In this document: piece after piece, positions 43,556 to 62,516 of the stretch
Numbering within the stretch: position 1 is the first letter of the stretch
Layout: each line of letters starts with the position of its first letter
NCBI GenBank assembly: GCA_965261605.1
Contig: OZ253466.1
Coordinates: 1,440,819 to 1,504,818 of the forward strand
DNA from: Dehalococcoidia bacterium
Lineage (GTDB): Bacteria > Chloroflexota > Dehalococcoidia > Lucifugimonadales > UBA2985
Direction of reading: 5' to 3'
Length of the DNA: 64,000 bases
Made by a program: the position numbers and the translations under genes
The notes under the pieces: model-generated
The model's database searches: none
What the model saw: the letters and a program-made list of their open reading frames with translations, nothing else
What the model was told of the DNA's origin: nothing

Positions 43556-44018
43556 CTTCTCCTATGTCGGAGGTAGGCTTCTCTAGAGAAGCAGCGTGTA
43601 TTACCGGAACCAGGCGGTCAACGGTCTCAGCGAGTTCCGCTTTGGTTCTGACTTCGTGCTCCGGAATACGAACCACTGTCCAGCCAGCGTCCGTAAGCCA
43701 TCTCGTGACTTGAAGGTCTCGGTCTCTATTGGCGCTTATCTTGTTCACCCAGAATTGGCCGCTCAGACCTGAGTGCTTGCGGCACTCGGGACAGCCGTGC
43801 CAGAAGCACCCGTCAACAAAGATAACAATCCTTTTTTTAGGTAATACCATGTCAGGGTTCCCGGGGAGTCGCTCACCTGTAACGGACTTGTAACCCTTGT
43901 GTGTAAAGTATCGCACCCCTCTGCGCCACAACCCCGACGCCAGTGCTCTCTCCGGTCGAGTTCTTCCTCGGTTGTGCGCCATCGCCTTGTGCCTCTGATG
44001 GGGCGTCATGATGTCCAT
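43545..44018 (-). CDS. vsr: Very short patch repair endonuclease
   Basis: ...TRPERALASGLWRRGVRY...PDMVLPKKRIVIFVDGCFWHGC...W.VVRIPEHE. Start placed at ATG 44018. Confidence 0.85.
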   Translation of the reverse strand: MDIMTPHQRHKAMAHNRGRTRPERALASGLWRRGVRYFTHKGYKSVTGERLPGNPDMVLPKKRIVIFVDGCFWHGCPECRKHSGLSGQFWVNKISANRDRDLQVTRWLTDAGWTVVRIPEHEVRTKAELAETVDRLVPVIHAASLEKPTSDIGEDGV

Positions 44019-44022
44019 TGGA

Positions 44023-45996: not shown

Positions 45997-46010
45997 CAAT
46001 TCCTCCTGAC

Positions 46011-46616
46011 TCAACAAGCCCTTTCGAAATAGTCCAAGACATCGGTGTGTCTCACCACCCGCGCCCCTAAACCCCGCAGGTTAGCGTTCCCCGGGCTGTC
46101 CAGCGTCAGCATCGGCTTACCAGAGGCGGCGAGATTGCGAGCGAAGGCTTCCGTCTTGCTGCCAGGGGCGGCATGGGCGATGAAGACTTGGGCTGCTAGA
46201 TCGGCCACCAAGTCGTTGCGGCGAGCGGCGACATCCGCCTTTGGGCGGCGGACCGTCGCGGGGAAGGGCGAGAGGACCAGCAAGCGGTCTTCGTCTAGGG
46301 CTGTGCGCCAGTCGCGGGGGATGCGCATGTTGTCGATGCCCCGAGCGGGGCAGACGACCACTGGCTGCTCACCCCGGAGCAGCCAGCGCAGGCACTCCCG
46401 CTCCATCGGCGTTTGGAAGCCTCCGATGACCGGCACGCCGGCGTCGCGCATGGCCCTTGCGAGGTCGTAGGTCTTGAGGATGAGGTCGCCGGGGCAGCGG
46501 TTGGAGCAGAAGAGGGCCGTCAGCGGCTCGTCGAGCAGGCGCAGATTGCCCCGGGCCGCCGTATTCGGCGGCAGCGAAGTCATGGTCTGACAGCTACGGA
46601 CAGCGGGCGGTCTCAT
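46011..46616 (-). CDS. Stand-alone DprA/Smf-like (SLOG-fold) protein
   Basis: TALFCSNRCPGDLILKTYDLARAMRDAGVPVIGGFQTPMERECLRWLLRGEQPVVVCPARGI...LLVLSPF...RRNDLVADLAAQVFIAHAAPGSKT follows the DprA Rossmann pattern. ATGA overlap with the upstream gene. Confidence 0.6.
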   Translation of the reverse strand: MRPPAVRSCQTMTSLPPNTAARGNLRLLDEPLTALFCSNRCPGDLILKTYDLARAMRDAGVPVIGGFQTPMERECLRWLLRGEQPVVVCPARGIDNMRIPRDWRTALDEDRLLVLSPFPATVRRPKADVAARRNDLVADLAAQVFIAHAAPGSKTEAFARNLAASGKPMLTLDSPGNANLRGLGARVVRHTDVLDYFERAC

Positions 46617-46981
46617 ATCGGCAACACCCGGACCCGGTTTCGGCTTTCGTCAACCACGACCAAGGCTCCGGAGGACAGGTCGGCCTCATGCTGGTTGAGA
46701 GCCGCGATGACCGAGCTCTCCAGGTAGTCCGGCAGGACATTCTCGGCGCGGACCTGAAGCACACTTGGGCCGACGTTATGCGTCAGCGCCAGCATGGTGC
46801 CGAAGTCCAGGTCGTGGGTGAACACTACGCATTGGTGAGTAGCTGCCCAATCCATGATGTCCCTGTCGCTAGCCCTTGGATCGCCAACGTCGGACCAGTG
46901 TACTGCCTGCCATCCGTGCTTCTGCAGCGCCGGTACCCATTCGGGTGATAGGTTCATGTCAACGAGGAGCGTCGGCCTCAT
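46613..46981 (-). CDS. DUF5615-type PIN-like toxin (putative)
   Basis: MRPTLLVDMNLSPEWVPAL...VVFTHDLDFG. ATGA overlap with the DUF433 gene. Confidence 0.6.
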   Translation of the reverse strand: MRPTLLVDMNLSPEWVPALQKHGWQAVHWSDVGDPRASDRDIMDWAATHQCVVFTHDLDFGTMLALTHNVGPSVLQVRAENVLPDYLESSVIAALNQHEADLSSGALVVVDESRNRVRVLPI

Positions 46982-47223
46982 GACGTTGAGAGGGGGACTT
47001 CCCGTTCCTCCAGCCTCCAGGCGGCATAGGCCAGGGATTGGTCGATGTCCTCCCTTTCAAGATACGGATAGGCCTTGAGGATTTCGGTAGGTGAGCGACC
47101 GGCCGCCAAGAGACCCACAACCGTCCCGACCGTTACGCGCATTCCACGGATGCACGCCTTACCGCCCATGACGGCAGGGTCGATGGTAATTCTTTCCAGT
47201 GATTTCATGATCTCCCCTTCCAC
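46978..47223 (-). CDS. DUF433-type antitoxin (putative)
   Basis: ITIDPAVMGGKACIRGMRVTVGTVVGLLAAGRSPTEILKAYPYLEREDI. Confidence 0.65.
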   Translation of the reverse strand: MEGEIMKSLERITIDPAVMGGKACIRGMRVTVGTVVGLLAAGRSPTEILKAYPYLEREDIDQSLAYAAWRLEEREVPLSTS

Positions 47224-47271
47224 GATCAGATTCTTGCGGCTTTCCGTCCAGCGTGCCTGGTGTATCCTGGG

Positions 47272-47505
47272 TCAGCGGCCCCATGCTTCCTTCTCTTCTG
47301 CCAAGTAGGCCGCCACGTCTGCGGCCGTCTTGAAGACCAAGTGCCCTGGCGCTTCGTCCAGAATGTCAACGGCAGACCGGCGTTCTGACGCCGCCGACTG
47401 GCTAACAACCACGTCAACGGACTCCCCCACGGGAAGCCCCTGGTCCACGATCTCGATCTTGCCGCCCGGCAGTACCGTCGTTCTTATGTGCAGTACCTTT
47501 TGCAT
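47272..47505 (-). CDS. Hypothetical small protein (antitoxin-like)
   Basis: 77 aa, MQKVLHIRTTVLPGGKIEIVDQGLPVGESVDVVV... Its first 64 nt are repeated at 48031-48094. Confidence 0.4.
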   Translation of the reverse strand: MQKVLHIRTTVLPGGKIEIVDQGLPVGESVDVVVSQSAASERRSAVDILDEAPGHLVFKTAADVAAYLAEEKEAWGR

Positions 47506-47540: not shown

Positions 47541-47750
47541 CTACGCTTGGTCGAAGTCCTCCCGGCTGATGTCCAAGTCTCTTCGGATGCCGTGAAGGGT
47601 CCCCGTGGCCAGGTCCCGTTTGCCGTGTCTGGGAACGGTGGTTTCCTGGTTGTTGGCTGGGTTGATCCAGATTTCGTGCGATCCTCCTGCCTGGCGGTCA
47701 AAGGCGCATCCGAGCCTTCTGAGCTTCCTCGTCAGTTCTCTATAGGTCAT
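47541..47750 (-). CDS. hicA: HicA mRNA interferase toxin
   Basis: MTYRELTRKLRRLGCAFDRQAGGSHEIW...VPRHGKRDLATGTLHGIRRDL. Confidence 0.85.
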   Translation of the reverse strand: MTYRELTRKLRRLGCAFDRQAGGSHEIWINPANNQETTVPRHGKRDLATGTLHGIRRDLDISREDFDQA

Positions 47751-47992
47751 ACAGCCACAGATATCCTGCCCTCTCCGGTCTGGGATCGAGCTATCCCCGC
47801 AGGCAGGGATTTGCCCCGTTCCCTGTAGGAGAGGATGAATTGCTCAGCCACCGTGCACAGTTCGGCCAGGGTCTGGTTGGCGTTCTCCCCCCACGCACGG
47901 CACCCGGGCAATCCCGGTATCTCTGCCATGTAAAGCCACCCCTGGTCTTCACGGGGTTCGTGCAGTACATAGTCCAACTGGTACAGTTCCAT
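47747..47992 (-). CDS. hicB: HicB antitoxin
   Basis: ...GWLYMAEIPGLPGCRAWGENANQTLAEL... (UPF0150/HicB N-domain). ATGA overlap with hicA. Confidence 0.75.
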   Translation of the reverse strand: MELYQLDYVLHEPREDQGWLYMAEIPGLPGCRAWGENANQTLAELCTVAEQFILSYRERGKSLPAGIARSQTGEGRISVAV

Positions 47993-48019: not shown

Positions 48020-48094
48020 TCACCTCTCCCGGTCCACGATCTCTATCTTGCCTCCCGGCAATACCGTCGTCCGTATGTGCAACACTTTTTGCAT
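48020..48094 (-). pseudogene. Truncated paralog of the 47272-47505 gene (24 codons)
   Basis: MQKVLHIRTTVLPGGKIEIVDRER-stop. The first 21 aa are identical to the neighbour, and all ~8 nucleotide differences are synonymous. Confidence 0.6.
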
Positions 48095-48155: not shown

Positions 48156-48674
48156 TCATTCAATTCCCAACCGCTTGTCCAGCAGCACTACGAATGATCG
48201 TGCCAAAGATGTCCCAACGAACGCTGTTTGGCCGATGGCGACCACACCAAATGCAACCAAGAATAGGTACTTCGAATCAATACCTAAGAAGACTGCTTCA
48301 GAGCCAACAGTCGCAGCATACCGATGGAGTGTCGAGTCGAGAGCAAAAAGCAGCCCCAGCAAGACACCTACGTAGAATGTCAAAACAAGTAAGACATAGG
48401 TGACATGCCCCATACTCCATATCGATGCTTGCACCAATGATAACTTTCGCATGGCATCATTCTCTGCAGTAGCCTCCCACCATCCTGACAGGCTTGCATA
48501 AAAACCTAGCGCCAAAGCAATGCCCAACCAAAGTTCCAGGAGTTCACGTGTGATAAATGGCATATCCGGGTTCCATTCGTAAGTGTGTTGAAACGCTAGC
48601 AGCAAGAGTGCTAGTAGAGAAAGAAGCCATATTACCCGGAAAAACCATGCAGTTTTTCTCCCGCCGTCGTTCAT
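48156..48674 (-). CDS. Hypothetical integral membrane protein (~5 TM)
   Basis: 172 aa and strongly hydrophobic. Co-oriented downstream of the methyltransferase. Lower GC (45-58% in sampled lines). Confidence 0.5.
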   Translation of the reverse strand: MNDGGRKTAWFFRVIWLLSLLALLLLAFQHTYEWNPDMPFITRELLELWLGIALALGFYASLSGWWEATAENDAMRKLSLVQASIWSMGHVTYVLLVLTFYVGVLLGLLFALDSTLHRYAATVGSEAVFLGIDSKYLFLVAFGVVAIGQTAFVGTSLARSFVVLLDKRLGIE

Positions 48675-48717
48675 CGCTCTCTGACACCTTTTTCGTTAAT
48701 GCTTAATGATTCAGTTC

Positions 48718-48996
48718 TCATCGCCTTCCCGTAAGCCTGTAGTAGGCGGGATAGACTACCGCCGCAGCCAGTAAGATACCAATGCCGCCCATTAGAACCA
48801 TGGCCATTCCGAAGTCTAGAACGTACAGAACAATCCTGTTCGCCAACTCCGCGTCTTTTGCCTGTTCCACCACTATGTTATGAACAAGTTCGCTCCACAA
48901 TTGGCGAGTCAATGAGAAGATAAACGCGTCGATGACTAGTCCCAAGACGATCGTAATTGCAAATAGTAGTCTTGCTTCGCCCACCATAACCTCCAT
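48718..48996 (-). CDS. Hypothetical small membrane protein (2-3 TM)
   Basis: 92 aa, starting 11 nt after the methyltransferase stop. Confidence 0.45.
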   Translation of the reverse strand: MEVMVGEARLLFAITIVLGLVIDAFIFSLTRQLWSELVHNIVVEQAKDAELANRIVLYVLDFGMAMVLMGGIGILLAAAVVYPAYYRLTGRR

Positions 48997-49007
48997 CCAG
49001 CGAGTAA

Positions 49008-52000
49008 CTATCCCTCCCGCCCCATGCGGTATTTGATGTCGTAGTTGATGATGAAGTCCAGTTCCTCATCCGTGAAGCCGTAGTGCTCGGCCAGCATCCG
49101 GTCAACGTTGTCGATGAAAGGCTTTGCCGATGCCGGACTGAATCGTTGGTACTCAACCGCCCCGCCGATGTTGTACGTCGCCGCCTGAATATCTGAGTTT
49201 TCTTCAAGGCAACTGATTATCTGATGTGCGGATTTCTGCAAGAGGGATACACCATCAGCAATCGAGTCCGGAATAGGTATCGACTCCAAATCAGAAGGGT
49301 TGAAGTCCCTGCAATTCGTGCGCGCTTGATACAGCCAGTAGTGAAACGTACTCCAGAGCAAGCAGAAGACGGTGTCTCTTATGAGTGGATTTGGAAAGCA
49401 GACGCTGCTTTCACGAGTAGACGACCCTTCTATTCCGTCCCGCCAGAATCGAGGTGGAGACGTTGTGAAGGTAAACCAGCGGTTCACTCCAGTGATCTTG
49501 TAATAGATGCGATGCTCAGTTGGCGTGGCAGAAATCAGACTTCCAAGGGTAGTGGGCAGACTTAGCACCTTGCGATAAATGTTAAGGTCCGTCTGTGAAC
49601 GAAGCTTCGGAATTACTTCGCCAGGAATGGCAACAGGAGCGAACTGATACTGCACAAGGTCGAGAAGACTTGGAGTCTCTTCCTTGTACCACTTGTGATA
49701 TCTAGTAGTGGCAGTGGTGCGATGTTGTTTAGAAGTGCCTTTGCAGTGCAAAACGATACAGACCCGACAGTTGTTCATACCTTGAAACAGCTTTGAAGGA
49801 CGATCATTAAATATGGCATATGAGGTGAATTCCGAATGCTGGTAGAGAAGCTCTCGCAATTGAGACATGCGCTGTGTTGAGACAACTGGAGCTTGCACGA
49901 TAAAGCCTAGTCGTCGACCTGAGCCAAGTAGATTGGAGCTCCTCTCCGCACAGAGAGCATAGAGATTGCCACACTGCTCTGTTTCGAACCCTCGAATCTC
50001 ATACTCCCTGCGAATCTTGCTGTATTCCACGTACGGCGGGTTGCCAATGACGACGTCAAAGCCACCCCTAGCCATGATGCCGTAGAACTCCGCGAACCAG
50101 TGGAAGGGCTGGTGGCCGTTGCGCCAGGCGTCGTAGGTGGCGGTTTTCTTGGGGTCCACGCCGTACTCGGCGGCTAGGAGACGGTCCAGTTCGTTACCCA
50201 GGCTCTGCAGGCGGTCGCGCAAATCCTTCTTGTGTTCGGCGGTGACCTCTCCGCCCAGCGCGGTCTGCTGCTCACGGAAGCGATCGAAGGCGCGGCCGGC
50301 CACGTCGGCGTCCTCCTCTATGCGGGCCAGCGTCCTTTGCTGCTCTTCGTCAAGCGCCCGGTATTGGCCGTTGGGCATAACCGTCATGGCCTGCCGCACA
50401 GCGTCCAGGGAGGTGAAGCCGACGAGGGTGTTGCCCGCGCGGATGTTGAAGTCTATGTCCGGCAGCGGCTCTATCTGGTCATAGGTTTCGAGCTGGGCCA
50501 CGAGCTTCAGGAAGAGGCGCAGTTTGCAGATCTCCACCGCCTCTTCCATGATGTCCACGCCGTAGAGGTTGTTGAGGACAATGGACTTGAGAATGAAGTA
50601 GCGCTCGCTGGGATGACCGTCCGCCTCATCCAGCACCTTGCGAAAGTCCTCCAGGAAACTCGCGCTGCGCTTGTGCTCGGACCTTTCGGCGTCGTCCAGA
50701 AAGCCGCGCATCCCCTCCAGACAGGCGGTATAGAGGGGTTCCAGAATGTTCAGGGCAGCGAACAGGAACGCGCCTGAGCCGCAGGTGGGGTCGAGGACCG
50801 ACACGTCGCGCATAGCGTGCCAGAAGGCGCGCAGGAGGTCATGCCCTGCGCTCTGGGCGATGACGTCCCTGGCGAACCGCTCAATGTCCAGGTTCAACGT
50901 GATGAGGTCGTTGACATTCTGCGCCTCGCCCGACGCGAGCTTGGCCCTAACCTCTTCATAACGGGTGCGGCGAGCCACGACCTCGCGCCAAGTCTCGGTT
51001 GGTAGCGCGTAGTCGTCCGGCGCGGGCCGGTTCCAGCCGCCGCGCTGCGACACATCGCCGATGCCGGCGGCGATGTCGTCCGGCAGATGGAAGGGAGTGT
51101 CGAGGGGCTTCGGGTCTTCGGCCTGCCGCGCGTTCCAGGTGATGCCGTGGCCAACGGCGGGGTAGATGTAGCGGTCGGGGTCGTCCCGCAGCAGCCGCCA
51201 GACGCCGCCGTCCGGCCCGAAAGCCACCGGGCACTCCTTCCGAGCGGCGTCGAACAGGAAGGGGATGACTGTGTTCCGCGAGATGTAGCCGGTGATGTCC
51301 TCCTTGGTGTAGTAGGCGCCCATCTGCTTCTGGTTGACGTACTTCTCGAAGATGTAGCCAAGCACGTCCGGGTTGATCTCGTTGTCCTTCTTGCCGGGGC
51401 GGTCGTCCAGGTGCCAGGTGTAGCCGTCGAAGAAATCGAAGACCCTCTCGAAGGCGGCGTCGGGGATGGAGATGTCCGGGTTGTCCTGCTCCAAGGCGTG
51501 CTGGTCGAACAGGCCGCCGTTGAGGAAGGGCACTTTGCCCAGCAGCGCGATGAGGTCGGGCGTGCGCTGGGCTTCGGGCAGCGCCAGGCCCTTGTGGAAC
51601 AGCCGGAGGAGGAAGATGCGATAGAACTGCTGGAAGCGCCCGCCACCGCTTTGGTTCCGGACCGTGCTCAGACGGTTGCGAAGATAGTCCGGGTCACCGT
51701 CCAGAAAGTTCTTCTTCTGGATGAAGTAGACGAACATCATGCGGTTCAGCATGAGGGAAGCGTACCAGTCCCGGTCGCCCTGGGCGGTGATGCCCTCGAT
51801 GAAGTTCCCGAAGGCGGTCAGCTCGGCCCGGAAGCGTTCATAGAAGCGCTTGGTGACCTTCTCAACGTCGAAAACCTTGCCGACGAGAGAGACAACGTCG
51901 GTAATCCCGATGCCCTTGGCCTCGTCCTCCAACGTAAACAAGAAGTTATCGAGGCGCTGCAAGAGTGGCTGCCCCGTTTGGCCGGCATAGAAGCGATGCT

Positions 52001-52349
52001 CTCGGCAAGCGGTTGGTTTTCCGGCCTGCCTCTTAACCCATTGCCAAACTTGCTGCGTGCGGGCTGCGTCGACAAAGATGATGAGGTGCTCAAAGGCCCG
52101 CTTTGTGACTTGGGTCTCTATCTTGCGCCGCAACGGGTAATCGGGAATAGCGCCATCGGACCCTGGGGCGCATTGAAAGACGGCGAACTCCGCCTTTTTC
52201 GCTACGGGCCTGAGCGCGTACTCGAAGCCGTCCACAGGGATGGCTAGTGATTCACCCTGGAAGTGGTCCCAACCCAGGCCCTCCACGAAGAGACGCGGAA
52301 AGTCGAAAGCCTGTAGGTGGGGCCGTAGCTCTTCAATGGAGACTGGCAT
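49008..52349 (-). CDS. Large Eco57I/type IIG-like N6-adenine DNA methyltransferase with C-terminal recognition domain
   Basis: 1113 aa. FLNGGLF, motif I VLDPTCGSGAFL, motif IV VIGNPPYVEY. Its ATG overlaps the helicase TGA by 1 nt (TGATG). Confidence 0.85.
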   Translation of the reverse strand: MPVSIEELRPHLQAFDFPRLFVEGLGWDHFQGESLAIPVDGFEYALRPVAKKAEFAVFQCAPGSDGAIPDYPLRRKIETQVTKRAFEHLIIFVDAARTQQVWQWVKRQAGKPTACREHRFYAGQTGQPLLQRLDNFLFTLEDEAKGIGITDVVSLVGKVFDVEKVTKRFYERFRAELTAFGNFIEGITAQGDRDWYASLMLNRMMFVYFIQKKNFLDGDPDYLRNRLSTVRNQSGGGRFQQFYRIFLLRLFHKGLALPEAQRTPDLIALLGKVPFLNGGLFDQHALEQDNPDISIPDAAFERVFDFFDGYTWHLDDRPGKKDNEINPDVLGYIFEKYVNQKQMGAYYTKEDITGYISRNTVIPFLFDAARKECPVAFGPDGGVWRLLRDDPDRYIYPAVGHGITWNARQAEDPKPLDTPFHLPDDIAAGIGDVSQRGGWNRPAPDDYALPTETWREVVARRTRYEEVRAKLASGEAQNVNDLITLNLDIERFARDVIAQSAGHDLLRAFWHAMRDVSVLDPTCGSGAFLFAALNILEPLYTACLEGMRGFLDDAERSEHKRSASFLEDFRKVLDEADGHPSERYFILKSIVLNNLYGVDIMEEAVEICKLRLFLKLVAQLETYDQIEPLPDIDFNIRAGNTLVGFTSLDAVRQAMTVMPNGQYRALDEEQQRTLARIEEDADVAGRAFDRFREQQTALGGEVTAEHKKDLRDRLQSLGNELDRLLAAEYGVDPKKTATYDAWRNGHQPFHWFAEFYGIMARGGFDVVIGNPPYVEYSKIRREYEIRGFETEQCGNLYALCAERSSNLLGSGRRLGFIVQAPVVSTQRMSQLRELLYQHSEFTSYAIFNDRPSKLFQGMNNCRVCIVLHCKGTSKQHRTTATTRYHKWYKEETPSLLDLVQYQFAPVAIPGEVIPKLRSQTDLNIYRKVLSLPTTLGSLISATPTEHRIYYKITGVNRWFTFTTSPPRFWRDGIEGSSTRESSVCFPNPLIRDTVFCLLWSTFHYWLYQARTNCRDFNPSDLESIPIPDSIADGVSLLQKSAHQIISCLEENSDIQAATYNIGGAVEYQRFSPASAKPFIDNVDRMLAEHYGFTDEELDFIINYDIKYRMGREG

Positions 52350-55300
52350 CAGCGGTTGTCCTCACTGTCGAACAGCCCCAGGGAGCAGATGATCTGCGGT
52401 TCCTGGGCCTCGGCAACTGCGTTCCCCGTTAGGCAGAGCCTGTCCTCCTCACGCAGCGACATGACGATTTCGGCCAACTGGTCGTCGGAGACGCCGCTGC
52501 GGAGCTGCCGGTTCAGGGTGTCCACTGCCGACGGGCGCAGAGGATAGCGGTAGATGTCGTCGATGGCCTTGTGCAGCGCCTCCACGTCGAACAGCTGGCC
52601 CTTGATGGCCTCCGCGTACTGCTTGAGACGGGTGTACGTGCGGAAGCGAGCGCCGGAGGGCCGCCCGAGCTGGCCGCCGACTCGCTTCTCCTCCCTGACG
52701 AGGTGACCGACCCCGTCGGCGACGAGGCGATGGTGGCTCTCGTGATGAGGCTGCGCAGGGGTGTCCGGCCTGCACTCGGCGGCGGCGAGGATTTCAAGCT
52801 GCGACTCGGTGATGCTGTGACCCTCGCGGTCCACGTAAGCCAGGGCGTCGTTCCCGTCCGCCGTGCGCATGAAGACGAGGACGCCTTCGGGCCGCTGGGC
52901 GATGGGCGTGTGCTGGCGAGACGAGAACACGACGTCGGGCAGGTCGGCGACGGCCTTCTCCAATCGCGGGTCCGCGCTCGTAGCGTTCTTCCAGATCTGG
53001 TAAGCGTGGGACGCCAGGTCAACCTCACCGTCGGGGTCGCCGTCCAGGATGCCGGCGCGCTCGTTGTAGAGGTTGACGATGGTCTGGCTATCGGATTCAT
53101 CTTCGAAGAAAGCCTCGTCCGCGCCAACGACCTCCGCGTTTTCCCGAAGCCGCGTCCGAACGCGGTTACGCAGGTTGATGATACGCTCTACGCCGTCGGC
53201 GGGCAGGAAGGAGTGGCACAGAATCTCCTCCGCCTTCTGCCCTATGCGGTCGACGCGGCCCGCCCGCTGGATAAGACGGATGATGGCCCAAGGCAGGTCG
53301 TAGTTGACGACGACGTGGCAGTCCTGGAGGTTCTGGCCCTCGCTGAGTACGTCGGTGGCGACCAGGACGCGAAGCTCCTGTTCCGGTTTGTCCTGGCCCG
53401 GCCGCTGGTTGCTGTTGGGGCTGAATCGCCGTGCAAACTGCGTGGGGTCGGCGGAGCTGCCGGTGACGCCCGCCATAGCCTCCACGCCTCTGCCCTTGAG
53501 CTGCGACTCAAGGTAGAAGACCGTATCGGCGAACTGGGAGAAGACCAGGACCTTCCGGTCCGGGAACGTCTCCATAAGGAGCGTGTGGAGCGCGTCGAGC
53601 TTGGCGTCGTGACGCGGGTCCCATGCGCCGTAGGTCTGGAGCAGGTCCAGGAGGGCGTTGGAGTCGGCCTGGAGTTCGCTCTCCAAGGAATCCCGAAAGA
53701 GGTCGGAGCGGAGCCACTTGAAGCGTCTCCTATAGCGGCCCTCGTAATCCGCGTATATAGCGGCGGCGCTCGCTTCGAAGCCGGCCGCAGTCCAAGCGCC
53801 GCCGGTCTCCTGGACTTCCTCTTCCTGCTCGTCATCGTCAGGGTCGAAGAGTGATCCCCTCGCCTGGTCTGCGTCTTCGTCGGTGAAGCGGGAATCCAGC
53901 ATCTCGGCGTCCTGCGTGCCAAGGGGCAGCGGCAGGCCATTCTGGAGGGCGTGAAGGAAGACATAGTTTCGGAGAACGTGACGTTCGACGGATTGCAGGA
54001 AGGCCGCGCCGCTGCTTTCCAGGCGTTTGAAGAGGTTCGTACGGCAGAAGCCCATCAGCCGCTTCCCGGCCCGTGAGAGGTCGTTTATTTGGCGATCCTC
54101 GGCAGTAGTGGGCGGCGTCCCCGGGTTGTCAGCGACGTAGTTGCCAAGGCCGTATCTTGGCAGATGCAGATTGTTCACCGTATCGACCACCTGTTGCGAG
54201 TACAGCTTGGCGTACTGGTCATCTGGATTGGACTCGTCGATGGCGAATTTGACTGTCTTAGGAATACGGGTGGGGAAGAACGATTGGGTTCCGTCCTCGT
54301 AGGTGAGGAACTTTCGCCCTGTCTCCTGTTCCGTCTCCGCGTAGTTGTCCTGGATGAAGCTGCGGGTGCGGCGCACGAGGTAGAGTCTCATCAGGTCCCG
54401 CCAGTCATCTGCGTGCTCACTGAAGTCGAAGGCCGCCAGGGTGCGCGGCGAGGCCTGGTGGCGCCTGCTGAACTCGATCTCGCCCAACTCTCGCAGGAGT
54501 CGTTCGGGGCGGATGCCCAGGTCTTGGTCTTCCTCAACGAAGATGCGCAGTTGGCTGGACAGGTCCAAGTACGTCTTGTTGTAGGGCGTAGCCGATAGGA
54601 GAATGCACTTGCTCTCGTTTGCGTGTACGTACTCTTGGATTGCCCGATAGCGGCGGCCCTCGCGGTTTCGAAGGTTGTGACTCTCGTCAATGACAACCAG
54701 TCGGTAGCGGCGTAGGGTGGGCAGCTCGCCGAGCACCCTGCTGAGGGACAGCACCCTGGCCCGCAGCTGGTACTGGTACACGTAGTCTTCCCACATGGGG
54801 ACGAGGTTCTTGGGGCAGATGATAAGCGTCTCCAGCCCGTAGTCGTCCTCGAAGATGCGAGCGACGGCGGTAGCCATGAGTGTCTTGCCAAGTCCCACCA
54901 CATCCCCGATGAGCACGCCGTTGCGCTTGTTCAAATGGTGGGCCGCGATCTTGACTGCGGCGGCCTGGAAGTCGAACAGCCGGTCGCCGAACACCTTGGG
55001 AATCCTGAACTCGGCAAGACCGGCGCGGGCCTCGTGAGAGAGGTGGTAGGCCATCTTGAGGTAGACGTGGTAGGGAGGAATGAGCGCTTCCCGCGCCCAA
55101 CTCTCTTCGATGATCTGAAGCAGCTCGTCCGTGATGTCAACACAGAAGCGGTCGCTCCACCTGTCCTCGAACCACTGCGTGAGCTTGAGAGCGGCGTCGT
55201 GGTCGAGCACGTCCACGTTCAACTCGCCTTGCCCGGAGAGCCCTGCGAAGGTCAGGTTGCTGCTTCCCAGGTAGCCGACGATGGGGTTGACGGGGTCGTC

Positions 55301-55744
55301 TCGGAACAACAGGTAGAGCTTCGCGTGCAAAGGATGACGTAGGAAGAGCTTGACAACGACCTTCTTGGCGCGAAGCTGCTCGGCCAACTGCCGTAAGGTC
55401 CGCTCGTCGGCGTTGGTAGGCGCACCCATGGTGAGCTGCTGGCGGAGTTGCTCGGCCAACTGGACTCTGAGGCGATGCGCCGTCTGGTTGTCCATGCCGG
55501 AGGGCCTGTCGACGAGGCTTAGCATCTCCCGGAGCTCCTCGTGGGGCAGACGCTGCATCCCGATGAGGACGCGGCACGGGCCGTCGTCGTCACTCCAGTC
55601 GTCCACGCACGGGGCAAGACCGCCCCAGCCTCGCAGGTTGAAGTAGCCGACGCAGAAGTCCGCACGCGAAGAGAGCGCCAGAGTCTCTTGCAACGCGGGC
55701 AGTAGGCTTGAATCAGGCGCAAGGTTGTCGAAGATACGCGGCAT
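52349..55744 (-). CDS. PLD-nuclease domain fused to SNF2-family helicase
   Basis: PLD HxK motif HAKLYLLF...GSSNLT. Helicase motifs GDVVGLGKTLMA (I), VIDESHNLRN (II), LLSATPYNK (III), QRAGRVDRIGQ (VI). Confidence 0.85.
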   Translation of the reverse strand: MPRIFDNLAPDSSLLPALQETLALSSRADFCVGYFNLRGWGGLAPCVDDWSDDDGPCRVLIGMQRLPHEELREMLSLVDRPSGMDNQTAHRLRVQLAEQLRQQLTMGAPTNADERTLRQLAEQLRAKKVVVKLFLRHPLHAKLYLLFRDDPVNPIVGYLGSSNLTFAGLSGQGELNVDVLDHDAALKLTQWFEDRWSDRFCVDITDELLQIIEESWAREALIPPYHVYLKMAYHLSHEARAGLAEFRIPKVFGDRLFDFQAAAVKIAAHHLNKRNGVLIGDVVGLGKTLMATAVARIFEDDYGLETLIICPKNLVPMWEDYVYQYQLRARVLSLSRVLGELPTLRRYRLVVIDESHNLRNREGRRYRAIQEYVHANESKCILLSATPYNKTYLDLSSQLRIFVEEDQDLGIRPERLLRELGEIEFSRRHQASPRTLAAFDFSEHADDWRDLMRLYLVRRTRSFIQDNYAETEQETGRKFLTYEDGTQSFFPTRIPKTVKFAIDESNPDDQYAKLYSQQVVDTVNNLHLPRYGLGNYVADNPGTPPTTAEDRQINDLSRAGKRLMGFCRTNLFKRLESSGAAFLQSVERHVLRNYVFLHALQNGLPLPLGTQDAEMLDSRFTDEDADQARGSLFDPDDDEQEEEVQETGGAWTAAGFEASAAAIYADYEGRYRRRFKWLRSDLFRDSLESELQADSNALLDLLQTYGAWDPRHDAKLDALHTLLMETFPDRKVLVFSQFADTVFYLESQLKGRGVEAMAGVTGSSADPTQFARRFSPNSNQRPGQDKPEQELRVLVATDVLSEGQNLQDCHVVVNYDLPWAIIRLIQRAGRVDRIGQKAEEILCHSFLPADGVERIINLRNRVRTRLRENAEVVGADEAFFEDESDSQTIVNLYNERAGILDGDPDGEVDLASHAYQIWKNATSADPRLEKAVADLPDVVFSSRQHTPIAQRPEGVLVFMRTADGNDALAYVDREGHSITESQLEILAAAECRPDTPAQPHHESHHRLVADGVGHLVREEKRVGGQLGRPSGARFRTYTRLKQYAEAIKGQLFDVEALHKAIDDIYRYPLRPSAVDTLNRQLRSGVSDDQLAEIVMSLREEDRLCLTGNAVAEAQEPQIICSLGLFDSEDNR

Positions 55745-55775: not shown

Positions 55776-56012
55776 TCACTTGGATTTTTCTTGTCCCGCC
55801 AAGAATGAATGGCTAGAGGAACGTACCTCTGGGCCGCTCCCTCCCCCGGTCTTCACCCACTCGTCTACCTCCGAGAGTCGGAAACGAAGGAGCCTCCCCA
55901 CCCTGTGAGCAGGAAAATCCTTTGTATCGACCCATCGGTAGATGGAGTCTCTGCCCACGCTCAGGTGGGCGGCCACCTCTCCGATGTTGACCCAACCTTC
56001 TTCAGACGCCAT
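55776..56012 (-). CDS. Excisionase/AlpA-type helix-turn-helix DNA-binding protein
   Basis: WVNIGEVAAHLSVGRDSIYRWVDTKDFPAHRVGRLLRFRLSEVDEWV. Start placed at ATG 56012. Confidence 0.7.
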   Translation of the reverse strand: MASEEGWVNIGEVAAHLSVGRDSIYRWVDTKDFPAHRVGRLLRFRLSEVDEWVKTGGGSGPEVRSSSHSFLAGQEKSK

Positions 56013-56258
56013 GTCCCAGTAACTCCTCATCAAGAAAGCCTATCACCTACAATGAAAATATAAGACTATAGACATGTATCGTCAATATCCTTGACCCTCT
56101 CCCAAGCAGCGGGAAAGCGGCATCGGGACTTCGGACAGCAAAAAAGGGCAGCATACACGGGAACACGGCCAGTCTGAAACGCAAAAAGGCCGCACACATG
56201 AACGAGCCAGGGGAGGCCTCCGCACTTGCAGCGACGACCTCCCCTGTATCTTAGCGGT

Positions 56259-58610
56259 CTAACGCCCCGCGCAGACCATCTCCTCCTTCCGTTCCTGCTC
56301 TAGGGCGAGCGCCCAATCGAACAGAGAGGCGGTAGCGGGCTGGGCTTGGCGGCCCCTGCCCTTCGGCTTGACCGGCTCCTCGGCCATGAACTCCGCCCAG
56401 GAGAACAGCGACTGCTGCGGCTCCGGGGCCTCGTCGTGGCGGCCGTTGCCGTTCCCGTTGGCGTGGCGGTCGTTGCCCAGGACCAGCTCGACCGTCGGCC
56501 CGATGGCTTCGGTGTGGTGGCCGTTCCCGTTGGCCCCGTTGCCGTTGACCGCGACGGCCTCCGGCTCCACCTCGACCAGCTTCCAGTCGTCGTCCACCAG
56601 GAACTCTTCCGAAACGGCCTCAGCGTCTCTGGCCTGGGCGAAGACCGCCTCCACCGTCTCGGCGTCGTCCTCCTCTCCGCTTATGACCTGCCGGGCCAAC
56701 GCCATCATCAGGTCGTCGCCGTCGTCGCCGTAGGCGGCCAGCCCGTCCTCCGGCAGCTCGCCCTCGACGGCGAGGGAGCTTTGCAGCTTCTTCGCCACCA
56801 GCTTCAGCGCATCGGCCTGGAGGGTGTTCCGGTAGGACATGAACACCACCTTCACCGGGCGGGTCTGCCCGATGCGCCACGACCGCCGCGACGCCTGCCG
56901 CATCACGTAGACCGAGTAATCGGTCTCGTACCAGCAGAGGGTCTGGAAGTCGATGAGGTCGAGGCCGGTCTGCACCAGCCTGGGATGGCAGATGAGCACG
57001 TCGATGCCCTGCTTCACCCTGTCGGCCACCCACGCCTCCCTCTGGTCCGGGGCCACGGCGTCAGCCTTCATCACCGCCACACGGAATCCGTGCCGGGTGA
57101 GCATGTCGTCCATCCGCTCGGTGATGTCCCGCGTTCCCGTGTGGGTGGCGTAGACCAGCACCCTTCGGCCCTCCATCCGCTCGGCGGCCACCAAGTCGAT
57201 GAGCGCCTGCTCCTTGGGGTAGAGCTTGTCCTCATGCAGGGGAGGGACCTGCACGATGACTTCGCCGCTCCTGGGGTCGAAGACCGTCTCCCCCTTGGTG
57301 CAGCCGTCGGGGTAGGCCAGGAGGGTTTGCAGGTAGGTCGCCAGCAGCCGCTTGGAACCCTTCTTCAGGGCCTCAGCCAGCTTCAGCCGCAACTCCTCGT
57401 ACACCGTGGTGTAGGCGCTGCGCTGAGAGTAGCCCGTCGAGTCCGCCTCCGAGTCCATCGAGGAGAGCAGAATCTGCTCCTCGTAGGGAGGCAGCCCGGA
57501 GGCCACGTCGGACAACCGCAGGAAGACGGTGTTGCCGATGATGTGGAAGAGGGCGCTCGGCACGAGGCCGGGCCTCTCCCTCACCACCTTGCGGTACTGG
57601 CGGCGGCGGCTGAAGCGCCCGTCCTCCACGGCATCGTCGTCGGGCTTGCCGACCGTGTACTCCTCGAAGCCGTAGCGCTGAATCCAGCGGTGCTCCTCGG
57701 AGCGCCCGAACTCCGTCCTGATCTCAGGCGAGAACCTGTAGAGCAGGTGGAACAGCGTCGAGCTGTAGCCGCCCATCAGCGTCCCGGACAGGCTGAGGGA
57801 CTTGCCGCACACGTCGGCGAGGACCCCGGCGGCGATGCCCTGGGCCGACCCCCGGCCCTTGTACTCGTGGACCTCGTCCGTTACGAGCAGGTCGAAGAAG
57901 CCCTTCATCCGGTGCTTCACGTAGTCCGCAAGCGGGTAGCGGGCTGGCCCGGACTTGTCCGCCTGCCACAGGGGGCCGCCGCAGTCGGCGCAGGTGTGCT
58001 TGCGGCGGTTCAGGTCGGCGTCCGTCAGGGGAACGCCATCCTTGTCCACGACCTGCGCCGTGCAGTCGGGGCAGCAGGGCACCCGGAAGGGCTCCCCCGT
58101 CTCCTCGTCCCGCAACAGCCTGCCCTTGGAGACGGCCCACCGCTGTATCACGGCGGGCATCCACCGGTAGGACAGCTTGGCCTTCTCCCGCGACATGACC
58201 ACGAAGAGAGGGCCGGAGCCGACGGAGATGCGCAGCCGCTCCAGGTCGGTGATGGATTTGACGATGACGGCGCGGGCGCCGGGCACCGTCATCTCCACTT
58301 CCCGCTTCCACTTGGGCACCAGGTGGGGCGGGCAGAGGATGAGCACCCTCTTGAAGCCCGCCATGTGAGCGGCGGCTGCGGCGATGAAGGTCTTGCCGGT
58401 GCCCATCTCGCCGACGACGGTGGTGCCCCGGTGGGCTTCAAGGGAGAGGGCCGCGCCCCGTATGGCGTCCTCCTGCGCCCCCAGGGGGGAGCGGAGCAGG
58501 CGGGGAAGCGTGTGGCAGTTCTCCGAGGGCCGGTAGAGCGGCGGGTAGGACTCCACCACCCGCTTGGCGATAGCGTCCTTGAACGTGTCGATGAATCCTC
58601 CGAGGTTCAT
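56259..58610 (-). CDS. SNF2/DEAD-like helicase with inserted zinc ribbon (mobile-element type)
   Basis: GEMGTGKTFIA (I), LLVTDEVHEYKG (II), RRSWRIGQTRPV (VI). Insert: CCPDCTAQV...HTCADCGGPLW. Confidence 0.85.
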   Translation of the reverse strand: MNLGGFIDTFKDAIAKRVVESYPPLYRPSENCHTLPRLLRSPLGAQEDAIRGAALSLEAHRGTTVVGEMGTGKTFIAAAAAHMAGFKRVLILCPPHLVPKWKREVEMTVPGARAVIVKSITDLERLRISVGSGPLFVVMSREKAKLSYRWMPAVIQRWAVSKGRLLRDEETGEPFRVPCCPDCTAQVVDKDGVPLTDADLNRRKHTCADCGGPLWQADKSGPARYPLADYVKHRMKGFFDLLVTDEVHEYKGRGSAQGIAAGVLADVCGKSLSLSGTLMGGYSSTLFHLLYRFSPEIRTEFGRSEEHRWIQRYGFEEYTVGKPDDDAVEDGRFSRRRQYRKVVRERPGLVPSALFHIIGNTVFLRLSDVASGLPPYEEQILLSSMDSEADSTGYSQRSAYTTVYEELRLKLAEALKKGSKRLLATYLQTLLAYPDGCTKGETVFDPRSGEVIVQVPPLHEDKLYPKEQALIDLVAAERMEGRRVLVYATHTGTRDITERMDDMLTRHGFRVAVMKADAVAPDQREAWVADRVKQGIDVLICHPRLVQTGLDLIDFQTLCWYETDYSVYVMRQASRRSWRIGQTRPVKVVFMSYRNTLQADALKLVAKKLQSSLAVEGELPEDGLAAYGDDGDDLMMALARQVISGEEDDAETVEAVFAQARDAEAVSEEFLVDDDWKLVEVEPEAVAVNGNGANGNGHHTEAIGPTVELVLGNDRHANGNGNGRHDEAPEPQQSLFSWAEFMAEEPVKPKGRGRQAQPATASLFDWALALEQERKEEMVCAGR

Positions 58611-58654
58611 GTCTTTCTCCTTTTATTAGAGTGTGTTGCGTTCCGTCCAAACAA

Positions 58655-58720
58655 GGCGAGGCCCCGCGGTCCCTCATGAACAACGGGGCCTCGTGGGATA
58701 CGGCTCGGTAGAGCCGTCTA
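58655..58720 (-). repeat. Intergenic stem-loop unit, subfamily I, copy 1
   Basis: On the coding strand: TAG, small hairpin acggct/agccgt, then GAGGCCCCG...CGGGGCCTC. Confidence 0.7.
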
Positions 58721-58936
58721 TGCGGCGTTGGGGAGGCGCTCCCTTGGCTTTGTGTCTTCGTAGCAGCGTCCCCGCAGGTGGTAGGACTTCACCGGGGTGG
58801 AGACGATCCTTCCGTCAATGATAGCCTGCCCCGTACTTGATACGGGGTCCACCGATGCGGTCTGCATGGCGGGTTCGCCGGGGGTGATGGGCTGCCCGCA
58901 GCGGGCGCAGGCTTCGAGGGTCATGTTCATCTGCAT
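58718..58936 (-). CDS. Hypothetical small protein (CxxC) carrying an in-frame family B repeat
   Basis: 72 aa, ...CARCGQPITPGEPAMQTASVDPVSSTGQAIIDGRIV...; the VDPVSSTGQA segment is encoded by the repeat at 58824-58847. Confidence 0.35.
   Translation of the reverse strand: MQMNMTLEACARCGQPITPGEPAMQTASVDPVSSTGQAIIDGRIVSTPVKSYHLRGRCYEDTKPRERLPNAA
58824..58847. repeat. Family B hairpin repeat
   Basis: gcctgccccgtacttgatacgggg. Confidence 0.85.
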
Positions 58937-58982
58937 CCTTCGGCCTCTCTTTCCTTTATTGGGTGTTTGCGTGTCCGATTGA

Positions 58983-59006
58983 CCCCGTATCGAGTACGGG
59001 GCAGGC
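58983..59006. repeat. Family B hairpin repeat (inverted orientation)
   Basis: ccccgtatcgagtacggggcaggc. Confidence 0.8.
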
Positions 59007-59008
59007 TT

Positions 59009-59079
59009 GGCGAGGCCCCGCCGTCCCCATTCACGGGAGCAGGCGGGGCCTCGTGTGTGGCTGTCCGTTCAGCCATCTA
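59009..59079 (-). repeat. Intergenic stem-loop unit, subfamily I, copy 2
   Basis: ggcgaggccccgccgtcccc...ggcggggcctcgtg...cta. Shares ggcgaggccccgc and cggggcctcgtg with copy 1. Confidence 0.7.
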
Positions 59080-60114: not shown

Positions 60115-60145
60115 GTCTCTTCTCCTTTATGGTCTTGTGCCGCCT

Positions 60146-61205: not shown

Positions 61206-61323
61206 GGTGAATCTCCTTCCTTATGTGTGTTGTGTGATGCGCGGGGACTCGCTTCCCCGCGTGAGGGCCGGACAGCGTGGGCCGCCGGTCTTGGGCCGTC
61301 AGGAACCCGTATCGGGGTGCGGG

Positions 61324-61830: not shown

Positions 61831-61863
61831 GTCGGCCTCCTTCGTTATCGGTTAGAAACAGAA

Positions 61864-61925
61864 GCGGGGCCGCCCCCTGTAGATGGAAGCGGCCCCGTGG
61901 TGCGCCTTCGGAGAGGCGTCGCTAT
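61864..61925 (-). repeat. Intergenic stem-loop unit, subfamily II, copy 1
   Basis: gcggggccgccccctgtagatggaagcggccccgt + gcgccttcggagaggcg. Confidence 0.75.
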
Positions 61926-61944
61926 GTGGTTGCCGGTTGACCGG

Positions 61945-62319: not shown

Positions 62320-62373
62320 TTCGGTTCCTCCTGAATGGTGTGGCGCGGCGATGCCGCGCCCGGTTGAATGAGA

Positions 62374-62445: not shown

Positions 62446-62516
62446 GATGTGCTGCGGTCCAGGCCCCGGCTCGTCCACTTTGTTTCTTCTCTGATTGCGT
62501 CTACGACCGCTGACCA

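Follow-up and report, generated by a model that had tools for sequence, protein, structure and literature searches.

What is the function of a large helicase gene that runs directly into a methylase gene, and do the two small membrane genes behind this pair belong to the same system? The question is raised by a 64,000-nucleotide (nt) stretch of contig OZ253466.1 (positions 1,440,819 to 1,504,818, forward strand) from the Dehalococcoidia bacterium assembly GCA_965261605.1. This stretch is referred to as the window, and all coordinates are given in its numbering unless a locus is named. Reading of the open reading frames (ORFs) confirmed that the four genes are located on the minus strand exactly where a first-pass annotation, made from the letters alone, had placed them (Table 1). 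HEL designates the helicase with its N-terminal phospholipase D (PLD) domain, and MT designates the N6-adenine methyltransferase. In our judgement, the locus is probably an ATP-dependent restriction-modification (R-M) module with three conserved genes, the third of which codes for a DprA-like protein downstream of the membrane genes. The membrane genes themselves appear to be cargo.

HEL, MT and the DprA-like third gene

Relatives of MT were collected by scanning a one-genome-per-species collection, which yielded at least 555 confirmed sequences. Eighty MT-centred loci (L001-L080), in which MT is 46-73% identical to that of the window, were kept for neighbourhood work. They stem from Chloroflexota, Nitrospirota, Planctomycetota, Acidobacteriota, Poribacteria, Latescibacterota, Pseudomonadota, Cyanobacteriota, Verrucomicrobiota and others; the closest relatives of the window locus are Dehalococcoidia metagenome-assembled genomes (MAGs). 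In 73 of the 76 loci whose flank is long enough, a HEL homologue immediately precedes MT on the same strand. In the window, the stop codon of HEL overlaps the start codon of MT by one nt; the TGATG at 52349 that the first-pass annotation had pointed out was read directly in the sequence. A 1-nt or 4-nt overlap or a 3-nt gap was found at this junction in 23 of 36 abutting loci. Elsewhere, small genes for PIN toxins, a Schlafen/AlbA_2 protein or an RNA polymerase alpha-CTD-like protein lie between HEL and MT. The pair was also present in all nine loci from IMG/VR and on the plasmids pSYSX (Synechocystis PCC 6803) and pPRO1 (Pelobacter propionicus), where the two genes are annotated merely as 'helicase-related protein' and 'DNA methyltransferase'. 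The arrangement had been called atypical; with at least 555 MT relatives it is instead a widespread and conserved operon. A survey of programmed inversions lists in passing a 'Type II R-M' coding sequence with an adjacent phospholipase D/SNF-domain coding sequence (PMC9881135). In the literature searched, we found no paper that names or tests a HEL-MT system.

Clustering of the neighbours of the 80 loci did not reveal a recurrent gene upstream of HEL. Homologues of the HTH_17/AlpA-like gene precede HEL in 11 loci, and nine of these are close homologues in Dehalococcoidia MAGs. These close homologues, which were seen in no other group, are located directly 5' of HEL (L001, L006, L008, L010-L012, L014, L015 and L057). 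The PHROG match of the protein is 'excisionase and transcriptional regulator', and it is possible that it controls the operon or serves as the excisionase of an element.

The sequence motifs reported for the pair in the first-pass annotation (HAKLYLLF, GSSNLT and NPPY) and the SNF2 helicase were found again in the translations and by Pfam. In HEL, HAKLYLLF occupies amino acids (aa) 140-147 and GSSNLT aa 160-165. The motor contains the Walker A motif GLGKT, DESH and QRAGRVDRIGQ, and Pfam assigned PLDc_2 (aa 111-196), SNF2-rel_dom and Helicase_C. The residues H140, K142 and G160-S161-S162-N163 are invariant across 27 diverse HEL homologues; GLGKT and DESH are also intact and invariant in diverse homologue sets. 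The whole protein has one HxK motif. In PLD nucleases such as Nuc and BfiI, one active site is shared by a dimer. Because HEL possesses a single HKD motif, it would have to dimerise in order to form one PLD active site, as follows from the known chemistry of Nuc, BfiI and MtsD. The best PADLOC match of HEL was 'HKD+Snf2' (2.3e-47; partial, aa 333-868), ahead of the DrmD models. The nearest defence relative of the helicase is therefore the HKD+Snf2 effector of Gao_RL/MANTIS and not DrmD, which the first-pass annotation had brought up for comparison. A profile of the HEL family matched RapA and other SNF2 structures, and the motor is nearest to RapA.

HEL homologues form at least 8000 protein clusters at 90% identity, the best 120 of which are 87-94% identical. 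Together with the at least 555 MT relatives and the selection on the membrane genes reported below, this number confirms that the ORFs are real genes. In locus L088, which represents the same element as the window in another, low-coverage assembly, HEL is called as only 810 aa (L088 3894-6326), and many database proteins that match the N-terminus of MT comprise merely 380-840 aa. These short entries appear to result from frameshifts in long-read metagenome assemblies or to be genuine pseudogenes. Counts of the family at the protein level will underestimate the number of intact genes.

The motifs DPTCGSGAF and NPPY (aa 770-773) of MT are intact and invariant in diverse homologues. Pfam identified Eco57I (6e-26) and MmeI_Mtase, and the REBASE-derived PADLOC model PDLC03628 (REase_MTase_IIG) matched aa 11-1112, i.e. 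the full length, with 1054.7 bits. The MT family is already catalogued as Type IIG. A profile of the family matched the PglX/BrxX structures 8c45 and 9ewz, to which the methylase core alone aligns; no match was obtained when PDB sequences were searched with MT or the DprA-like protein as a single sequence. In a set of 72 homologues, the identity to the window residue is 19-33% for aa 800-1050 of MT, as compared to 60-86% in the methylase core, and the final ~60 residues are conserved again. HEL is conserved evenly along its full length and has no variable region. The combination of a variable MT and a constant HEL is what would be expected for a methylase that bears the specificity and acts with a constant effector. 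In L040 (a Ktedonosporobacter MAG, 15 kb), three MT-like genes or fragments are found at 2270-5581, 6001-9339 and 12821-15319, with 31-48% identity to the MT of the window. Possibly, these are paralogous systems in tandem or a reserve of recognition cassettes.

A PD-(D/E)XK triad is not conserved in the N-terminus of MT: D70 is present in 40 of the 72 homologues, and there is no ExK. Conserved in this domain are K52, R74, E87, H88, W102 and W104. An AlphaFold2 model of aa 1-480 reached a pLDDT score (predicted local distance difference test) of 75 and is confident (pLDDT ~90) for aa 1-125, which adopt an alpha-alpha-beta-beta-beta-alpha-beta-beta-beta fold. A fold search of the model against PDB yielded nothing with E <0.1. 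Because the conserved PD-(D/E)XK triad is missing from MT, the nuclease is most simply supplied by HEL. The PLD domain of HEL is likely to be the cutter, and a cryptic nuclease in MT is unproven.

Slr6050 of Synechocystis is 46% identical to MT over the full length. A HEL homologue (WP_011153866, 52% identical) lies upstream of slr6050, and a VapBC pair is inserted between the two genes. The methylase was named M.Ssp6803IV by REBASE and Hagemann et al. 2018, who tentatively assigned it to GAm6AGGC, an asymmetric 6-bp site with N6-methyladenine (m6A); its deletion never fully segregated, so that the authors call the gene essential, and the helicase beside it is not discussed (PMC6105098). A methylase that cannot be removed and an asymmetric 6-bp m6A site would fit an R-M system with an active partner nuclease, and this analogy lends indirect support to an R-M function. 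The possibility, named in the first-pass annotation, that the pair matches an already typed R-M or defence family thus proved half right: MT matches the REBASE-derived Type IIG model (1055 bits) and has a named relative in M.Ssp6803IV. Just downstream of the pair on pSYSX (L089 12793-15414), an operon for ubiquitin-like conjugation was found, with genes for a multiubiquitin, an E2/UBC, a ThiF-type E1 and a DUF6527 protein, plus an HTH and ImmA/IrrE pair. The pSYSX copy is also located within a defence island.

When all neighbours of the 80 loci were clustered, one family dominated. Its members are ~200-250 aa long, are homologous to the DprA-like gene of the window, and are always located downstream of MT on the same strand. 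According to a profile of this family, it is present in 43 of the 80 loci at a distance of 0-5.7 kb from the MT stop codon. The gene directly adjoins MT in L042, L048, L056, L073, L074 and L026, which belong to distant phyla. It was also found in six of the nine IMG/VR loci, including divergent ones with an MT of only 39% identity. In a reverse search of metagenome contigs with the DprA-like protein, MT and HEL were located upstream on the same strand in 12 of the 14 cases that had at least 7 kb of upstream sequence. Beyond the DprA-like gene, nothing recurrent was found in 55 loci. HEL, MT and the DprA-like gene delimit the module, since nothing recurs upstream of HEL or past the third gene.

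The assignment of the third protein is based on several matches. Pfam DNA_processg_A scored 31.0 bits (cutoff 29.6), PADLOC PsyrA matched partially (1e-11), and the family profile matched the DprA structures 4ljr, 5mll and 3uqz at ~1e-4. Furthermore, the invariant R133-N134 aligns with the 'ARNR' segment of DprA. Two other affiliations of the gene were rejected. It might have belonged to the downstream GHKL-Vsr-Dcm operon, to which it is connected by a stop/start overlap, but nothing downstream recurs in the 55 loci. It might also have been part of an element backbone, but MT and HEL recur upstream and, again, nothing recurs on the other side.

The cargo slot and the two membrane genes

Between MT and the DprA-like gene lies a slot of 0-5.7 kb, the contents of which differ from locus to locus. 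In the window, it is occupied by both membrane genes together with HicBA, a 77-aa gene and a DUF433/PIN-like pair. In related loci, the slot contains PIN toxin-antitoxin pairs, SMODS with a Cap17-like nucleosidase, SIR2-DUF4020, Mrr-STAND, a DEAD-HIRAN helicase, Schlafen/AlbA_2 with HATPase_c_4, TPR with AAA_21, MTaX1-HNH, a Vsr-Dcm fusion, HTH with Peptidase_M78, and DUF4411. The 77-aa gene recurs in the slots of L001, L004, L007, L009, L014, L081 and L085. A SMODS nucleotidyltransferase gene recurs just upstream of the DprA-like gene in L001, L007, L009, L015, L081, L084 and L085. In L007 it is followed by a gene for a Cap17-like N-terminal domain with homologues in L009, L015 and L057; elsewhere, SMODS stands alone beside a PIN pair. 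This recurrent SMODS gene may be a minimal CBASS-like unit.

Traces of recombination are found at the borders of the slot. In 12 of the 80 loci, an extra copy of the MT tail (aa ~1076-1113) follows the intact MT in the same orientation. The copies are located a few hundred to ~2,300 nt from MT and comprise the last ~28-40 codons or a displaced larger 3' piece. Examples are L008 10429-10542, L028 9780-9863 and L066 9823-9915. MT itself is split by an interruption of 2-2.5 kb in L001 and L014. The distribution of these copies suggests that the conserved MT tail serves as a recombination anchor for the insertion of cargo. In the window, the GC content is 47-50% over 48200-50000, as compared to 60-69% around it. 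This is consistent with the MT recognition region, the tail and the membrane genes having been acquired as one recombination block. Furthermore, a 67-nt direct repeat (87% identical; 47439-47505 and 48028-48094) brackets HicB/HicA. The repeat corresponds to the 5' end of the 77-aa gene and looks like a scar of the insertion of HicBA into the slot.

The two membrane genes are separated from MT and from each other by 11 nt and 43 nt, respectively, as calculated from the coordinates of the ORFs and in agreement with the first-pass annotation. The length of 92 aa given there for the first protein was presumably too large. A GGAGG precedes the second ATG of this ORF by 4 nt, and homologues elsewhere are called at 87-89 aa; the true protein probably has ~89 aa, with a spacer of ~20 nt to the MT stop codon. 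Hydropathy analysis indicated two membrane segments for this protein and about four for the 172-aa protein. Values of 0.26-0.66 for the ratio of non-synonymous to synonymous substitution rates (dN/dS), determined against the few homologues, indicate that both genes are under purifying selection.

Neither protein belongs to a family in Pfam, PADLOC, NCBIfam or PHROGs. Similar membrane proteins, which according to the first-pass annotation were to be looked for behind homologous helicase-methylase pairs, are absent from 80 of 80 related HEL-MT loci, and no relatives were found in IMG/VR. For the 172-aa protein, eight clusters exist among 5.8 billion proteins; a HMMER pass over 1.84 billion representatives gave 14 matches, which are remote relatives. 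In the contexts recovered for close homologues, the homologue of the 92-aa ORF is located immediately 5' of the 172-aa homologue. Because this order is always kept, the two genes form a cassette.

The contexts of the cassette vary. L088 shows it in the element of the window itself. In L081 and L084 it is located inside the slot, with other genes between the cassette and MT. An MT-tail remnant directly upstream of the cassette was found in L081, L085, L086 and L087. The remnant in L085 and L086 comprises aa 976-1113 and was left by the insertion of an insertion sequence (IS) of the IS3 family; that in L087 has 26 residues, and no MT is present. There is no HEL or MT within ~3 kb of the membrane genes in L082 and L083, and in L181 a 38%-identical relative occurs in a different island with SIR2-STAND, without HEL or MT. 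The IS3-family element (HTH_Tnp_1 and rve) lies beside the MT remnant at L085 7090-8666 and L086 4064-5640. VirB4-like, coupling-protein and relaxase genes are found just upstream of the element and remnant in both loci. HEL and most of MT are lost there, and the membrane cassette, a PIN pair, SMODS and the DprA-like gene are kept.

Judged from these contexts, the membrane genes appear to be a rare autonomous passenger, that is, cargo and not effectors. The first-pass annotation had offered both possibilities; the cargo alternative stands, and the effector alternative is largely refuted by the lack of homologues in the 80 loci. The adjacency of the cassette to the MT tail reflects the route by which cargo enters and not a shared function. 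Four Poribacteria loci (L045, L046, L055 and L058) have other small two-segment membrane proteins (113-160 aa; several paralogues in L058) after MT, in addition to a TPR and AAA_21 protein. BLAST revealed no similarity of these proteins to the membrane genes of the window.

The array of the window and its surroundings

The features of the locus are listed in Table 1. From 56033 down to 42110, the genes form an uninterrupted co-directional array on the minus strand in the order HTH_17/AlpA-like, HEL, MT, two membrane genes, HicB, HicA, 77-aa gene, DUF433, DUF5615, DprA-like, GHKL ATPase, Vsr and C5 methylase. No terminator-like site was seen on the minus strand between 45800 and 56400. The counts of the promoter and terminator scan are at or below shuffled expectation and therefore carry little information on transcription. 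Given this layout, read-through transcription from HEL-MT into the membrane genes is plausible.

Table 1. Coordinates of HEL, MT, the slot genes, the DprA-like gene and the region preceding HEL.
Feature	Position	Strand	Description
HEL	52349-55744	-	1131 aa; N-terminal PLD/HKD nuclease and SNF2-family helicase; predicted restriction effector
HEL PLD/HKD domain	55157-55414	-	aa 111-196; PLDc_2; single HxK (H140, K142), GSSN aa 160-163
HEL SNF2 helicase core	53135-55015	-	aa ~244-870; GLGKT, DESH, SATP, QRAGRVDRIGQ, invariant or nearly so
MT	49008-52349	-	1113 aa; gamma-class N6-adenine methyltransferase, PglX/Eco57I type; predicted modification and specificity subunit
MT hypervariable region	49200-49949	-	aa ~800-1050; presumed target-recognition domain
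MT conserved C-terminal tail	49011-49199	-	aa ~1051-1113; recurs as duplicated remnant at cargo boundaries
Low-GC block	48200-50000		MT recognition region, tail and both membrane genes; strandless
Small membrane protein, 92-aa ORF	48718-48996	-	2 predicted transmembrane segments; cassette gene 1; putative cargo
Membrane protein, 172 aa	48156-48674	-	~4 predicted transmembrane segments; cassette gene 2; putative cargo
HicB/HicA toxin-antitoxin pair	47541-47992	-	Pfam HicA_toxin and UPF0150; slot cargo
77-aa gene, DUF433 gene, DUF5615/PIN-like gene	46613-47505	-	Pfam; toxin-antitoxin-type slot cargo
DprA-like protein	46011-46616	-	201 aa, Rossmann domain only; third conserved member; 3' boundary of module
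HTH_17/AlpA-like (excisionase-type) DNA-binding protein	55776-56033	-	Pfam; 31 nt upstream of HEL
Sigma-70-like promoter match	56057-56085	-	TTGACG-17-TATATT; upstream of HTH gene; sole such match on minus strand

Pfam and PADLOC scans covered every ORF from 40017 to 63862. Upstream of the array, the region 56259-63862 codes for a 783-aa superfamily 2 (SF2) helicase, a DUF6094 methylase (PADLOC mad2-like, 1e-15), RadC, SSB and a DUF2958 protein. Genes of these kinds typically occupy the region with which conjugative elements lead or establish themselves, which suggests a mobile element; the defence array probably sits on an integrative element. Neither a tRNA gene nor an integrase was found in the window, and metabolic genes (IlvD and a PALP-ACT enzyme) are located at 27-30 kb. 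A 777-aa ORF without a Pfam match runs on the plus strand (56346-58679), antisense to the gene of the 783-aa helicase; it is almost certainly a high-GC shadow ORF and not a gene.

On the other side, 42110-46017 of the minus strand contains a separate restriction-type module with overlapping genes for a 664-aa GHKL (HATPase_c_3) ATPase, a Vsr endonuclease and a C5 cytosine methylase. It matches PADLOC 'REase_II' models and the paraMORC-type systems of Iyer et al. 2008, and L010 is syntenic (85-98% identity). The GHKL gene starts within the end of the DprA-like gene, with an overlap of 7 nt. The low-coordinate flank of the array (38654-41792) codes for an ion-transport (PKD-channel-like) protein and for a 591-aa alpha/beta-hydrolase with RCC1 repeats. 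Paralogues with RCC1 repeats were likewise seen near the remnant modules of L085 and L086.

Known systems, alternative explanations and proposed mode of action

The locus is best described as a member of the systems that combine a methylase with a helicase-nuclease, and its relatives are MANTIS, DISARM, BREX and Type III/ISP. An HKD-Swi2/Snf2 effector defines BREX-related (BR) type 2 systems, which are identical with Gao_RL, and a DUF3780 protein (MtsB) is found in 98% of BR type-2 loci (PMC12839542). Under the name of MANTIS, these systems were characterised very recently: MtsC hemimethylates asymmetric 6-bp sites, and restriction requires MtsD, a PLD-SF2 protein whose dimer has one PLD site. 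Restriction is strongest for inverted pairs of sites, and a DUF499 ATPase and a small co-regulator are needed (bioRxiv 10.64898/2026.09.23.753747). HEL and MtsD share the fusion of an N-terminal HKD/PLD nuclease to an SNF2-like SF2 ATPase, and N6-adenine methylation would be the self mark in both systems. In contrast to MANTIS, no DUF499 (MtsA) or DUF3780 (MtsB) protein was found among the scanned neighbours in the window or the recurrent neighbours of related loci. MT matches Eco57I/PglX-type families and has a variable recognition region of its own; it may belong to another family than MtsC. The DprA-like gene is conserved here, whereas the text of the BR-system paper does not mention it (PMC12839542). 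Large genes after MT in some loci (~1000-1200 aa) were considered as candidates for DUF499, which would have placed the locus in MANTIS, but this idea was rejected: those with a Pfam match are SIR2-DUF4020, DEAD-HIRAN helicase and Mrr-STAND genes, and the large downstream genes of L031 and L036 have no Pfam family at all.

The likeness to class 1 DISARM consists of an SNF2 helicase beside a large Eco57I-type adenine methylase, the presence of a PLD nuclease, and partial matches to the PADLOC models DrmD and DrmMI. However, DrmA and DrmB (DUF1998) were not found between 40017 and 63862 or among the recurrent neighbours of the 80 loci, and the PLD domain is fused to the helicase instead of being encoded separately. 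NCBIfam DISARM_DrmD scored 141.5 bits on HEL, far below its cutoff of 610, and DrmD_b 74 compared to 950. With BREX and ARMADA (ArmA SNF2 and ArmB PglX-like), the locus shares the pairing of a methylase with an SNF2 helicase. Furthermore, the closest solved structures of MT are PglX/BrxX, and the motor of HEL is closest to RapA, just as BrxHII of type 3 BREX is described as RapA-like. In contrast to these systems, HEL carries a nuclease, and PglZ, BrxC/PglY, BrxA, BrxB, BrxL and a YprA-type helicase were not found in the neighbourhood in the window. NCBIfam BREX_1_MTaseX scored 63 bits on MT (cutoff 500), and the other PglX models scored lower. The first-pass annotation was therefore correct in assigning the locus neither to DISARM nor to BREX, and its view of the pair as R-M-like is supported by the linkage, the intact motifs and the pattern of variability.

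Type III and Type ISP systems resemble the locus in their presumed logic, which comprises a methylase/specificity part, an SF2 ATPase-nuclease part, and hemimethylated asymmetric sites that need an orientation rule. However, Res of Type III has a C-terminal PD-(D/E)XK nuclease and Mod is of the beta class, whereas an N-terminal PLD domain, an SNF2 motor and an Eco57I/PglX-type methylase are found here. Type ISP enzymes are one polypeptide with an Mrr nuclease, in contrast to the two polypeptides and the PLD nuclease of the locus. With Type IIG/IIL enzymes (Eco57I, MmeI), MT shares the class of the methylase core and the union of methylase and recognition region in one polypeptide; no PD-(D/E)XK is conserved in it, and an obligate helicase-nuclease partner is outside the Type IIG definition. 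The third gene recalls PsyrTA and ShosTA, in which a DprA-like Rossmann protein serves as the antitoxin and its partner damages DNA. Both single-stranded DNA and RecA are bound by ShosA, and the normal task of DprA is to load RecA onto incoming single-stranded DNA (PMC12961424). In contrast, the third gene codes for ~200 aa, which is too short for the extra N-terminal SAM domain of ShosA (PMC12961424). The partners here are a helicase-nuclease and a methylase instead of a phosphoribosyltransferase (PRTase) or RecQ-like toxin, neither of which is encoded next to the DprA-like gene, and several kb of cargo often lie between this gene and its partners.

The division of labour between HEL and MT could be different from the one we favour. 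MT could be a Type IIG enzyme that is complete with a nuclease at its N-terminus; HEL would then be a neighbour with a function of its own, such as a Type IV enzyme like SauUSI, which attacks modified DNA. The full-length match of MT to REase_MTase_IIG, the weak HSDR_N similarity reported for Slr6050 (PMC6105098), the N-terminal alpha/beta fold with invariant charged residues, and the PLD-helicase architecture of HEL, which resembles that of SauUSI, are compatible with this proposal. It is nevertheless rather unlikely: HEL and MT lie next to each other on one strand in nearly all cases and frequently overlap, MT lacks a conserved PD-(D/E)XK triad and its fold search gave no significant nuclease match, and the evenly conserved HEL has no variable recognition region of its own. 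Moreover, a methylation-dependent nuclease coupled to a methylase would be self-toxic. It is unlikely, too, that the module serves a mobile element, with the methylase marking or protecting transferred DNA and the helicase and the DprA-like protein processing incoming single-stranded DNA in conjugative establishment. The three genes recur across many phyla with non-conserved flanks on both sides, a hypervariable recognition region plus a conserved nuclease motif are hallmarks of restriction and not of establishment, slr6050 behaves as an essential gene, and the cargo of the slot is of the defence type. These observations outweigh the presence of SSB, RadC, DUF2958, the DUF6094 methylase and a helicase just upstream in the window, the VirB4, coupling-protein and relaxase genes beside the remnant module in L085, and the normal role of DprA in loading RecA onto incoming single-stranded DNA.

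Two further explanations appear very improbable. The membrane proteins might be effectors or co-factors of HEL-MT, such as membrane-disrupting effectors of abortive infection, as could be deduced from the common strand, the short spacers, the lack of a terminator-like site between MT and the pair, the position directly after an intact or remnant 3' tail of MT in most recovered contexts, and the other small two-segment genes after MT in a few Poribacteria loci. Yet the family is tiny and has no homologue in any of the 80 HEL-MT loci, other genes separate the pair from MT in L081 and L084, the pair is intact in L085-L087 despite the reduction of MT to a remnant, and the relatives in L082 and L181 have no HEL or MT nearby; recombination at the MT tail explains the adjacency. 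Equally improbable is an epigenetic regulator without restriction, i.e. a phase-variable methylase of the 'phasevarion' type with a remodelling helicase. Methylases with an Eco57I domain are indeed enriched among the targets of programmed inversion (PMC9881135), and the recognition region of MT is highly variable. However, the PLD catalytic residues of HEL are invariant, slr6050 could not be deleted, and the module is located in defence islands and holds defence cargo.

Several observations weigh against an R-M module of three genes. In about one third of the loci with a full 6-kb downstream flank, these 6 kb contain no DprA-like gene, and none was detected in the analysed stretches of the Synechocystis and Pelobacter plasmids. 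It survives in L085 and L086, where the IS element destroyed HEL-MT. The DprA-like gene is thus not obligatory; it is a conserved accessory, for which we propose a role below. The match of MT to a model of combined restriction and methylase enzymes extends over the full length, and its N-terminal fold with the invariant K52, R74, E87 and H88 leaves room for a cryptic nuclease. The assignment of Slr6050 to GAm6AGGC is tentative and without biochemical proof (PMC6105098). Finally, the window lies in an element with conjugation-associated genes, so that a role in the establishment of this element is possible.

For the R-M module, we propose the following mode of action. MT would read a short and probably asymmetric motif through its hypervariable C-terminal region and methylate one adenine on one strand, as suggested by Slr6050 and the PglX/MmeI class, thus marking host DNA as self. 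At unmethylated sites, MT might recruit or license a HEL dimer, which implies a contact between the two proteins. The SNF2 motor of HEL would spend ATP, and the shared PLD site would cut the foreign DNA. By analogy to Type III, Type ISP and MANTIS, two inversely oriented unmodified sites are probably needed. Such a rule for the orientation of two sites would be expected because hemimethylated asymmetric sites leave one daughter duplex unmarked after replication. The DprA-like protein most likely binds single-stranded DNA and engages RecA, as ShosA does; it may limit self-damage via RecA or sense single-stranded DNA. The stretch from MT to the DprA-like gene would be a recombination-prone slot that collects unrelated defence cargo.

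More tentatively, HEL, MT and the DprA-like protein could constitute an undescribed three-gene family of methylation-based, ATP-dependent restriction systems, which would be related to BREX and MANTIS, lack an AAA+ loader, and have the DprA-like protein, which would engage single-stranded DNA and RecA, as an integral partner. In such a family, the MT core and tail at one end and the DprA-like gene at the other would act as homology arms, by which recognition domains and the embedded defence cargo are swapped together between strains. This analysis adds to the first-pass annotation a third, DprA-like gene outside the coordinates given there, the slot for cargo and its scars of recombination, and the reassessment of the membrane genes as cargo.

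If the proposed R-M function is correct, the HEL-MT family would be among the more abundant uncharacterised restriction-type systems of environmental bacteria, given its at least 555 species-level MT relatives. Current annotation sees a 'Type IIG methylase' and a 'helicase-related protein', so that the partnership, the nuclease and the third gene are overlooked. The pair would be a simpler, two-protein counterpart to MANTIS and BREX, suited to the question of how unmodified sites are handed over from a methylase to a motor-nuclease without an AAA+ loader. A DprA-like protein in a methylation-based system would provide a link to the antitoxins of ShosTA and PsyrTA. The use of the interior of an operon as an exchange site for defence genes bears on the prediction of defence islands and on the interpretation of small orphan genes. 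The HEL-MT family is abundant and testable, and its logic is probably a familiar one.

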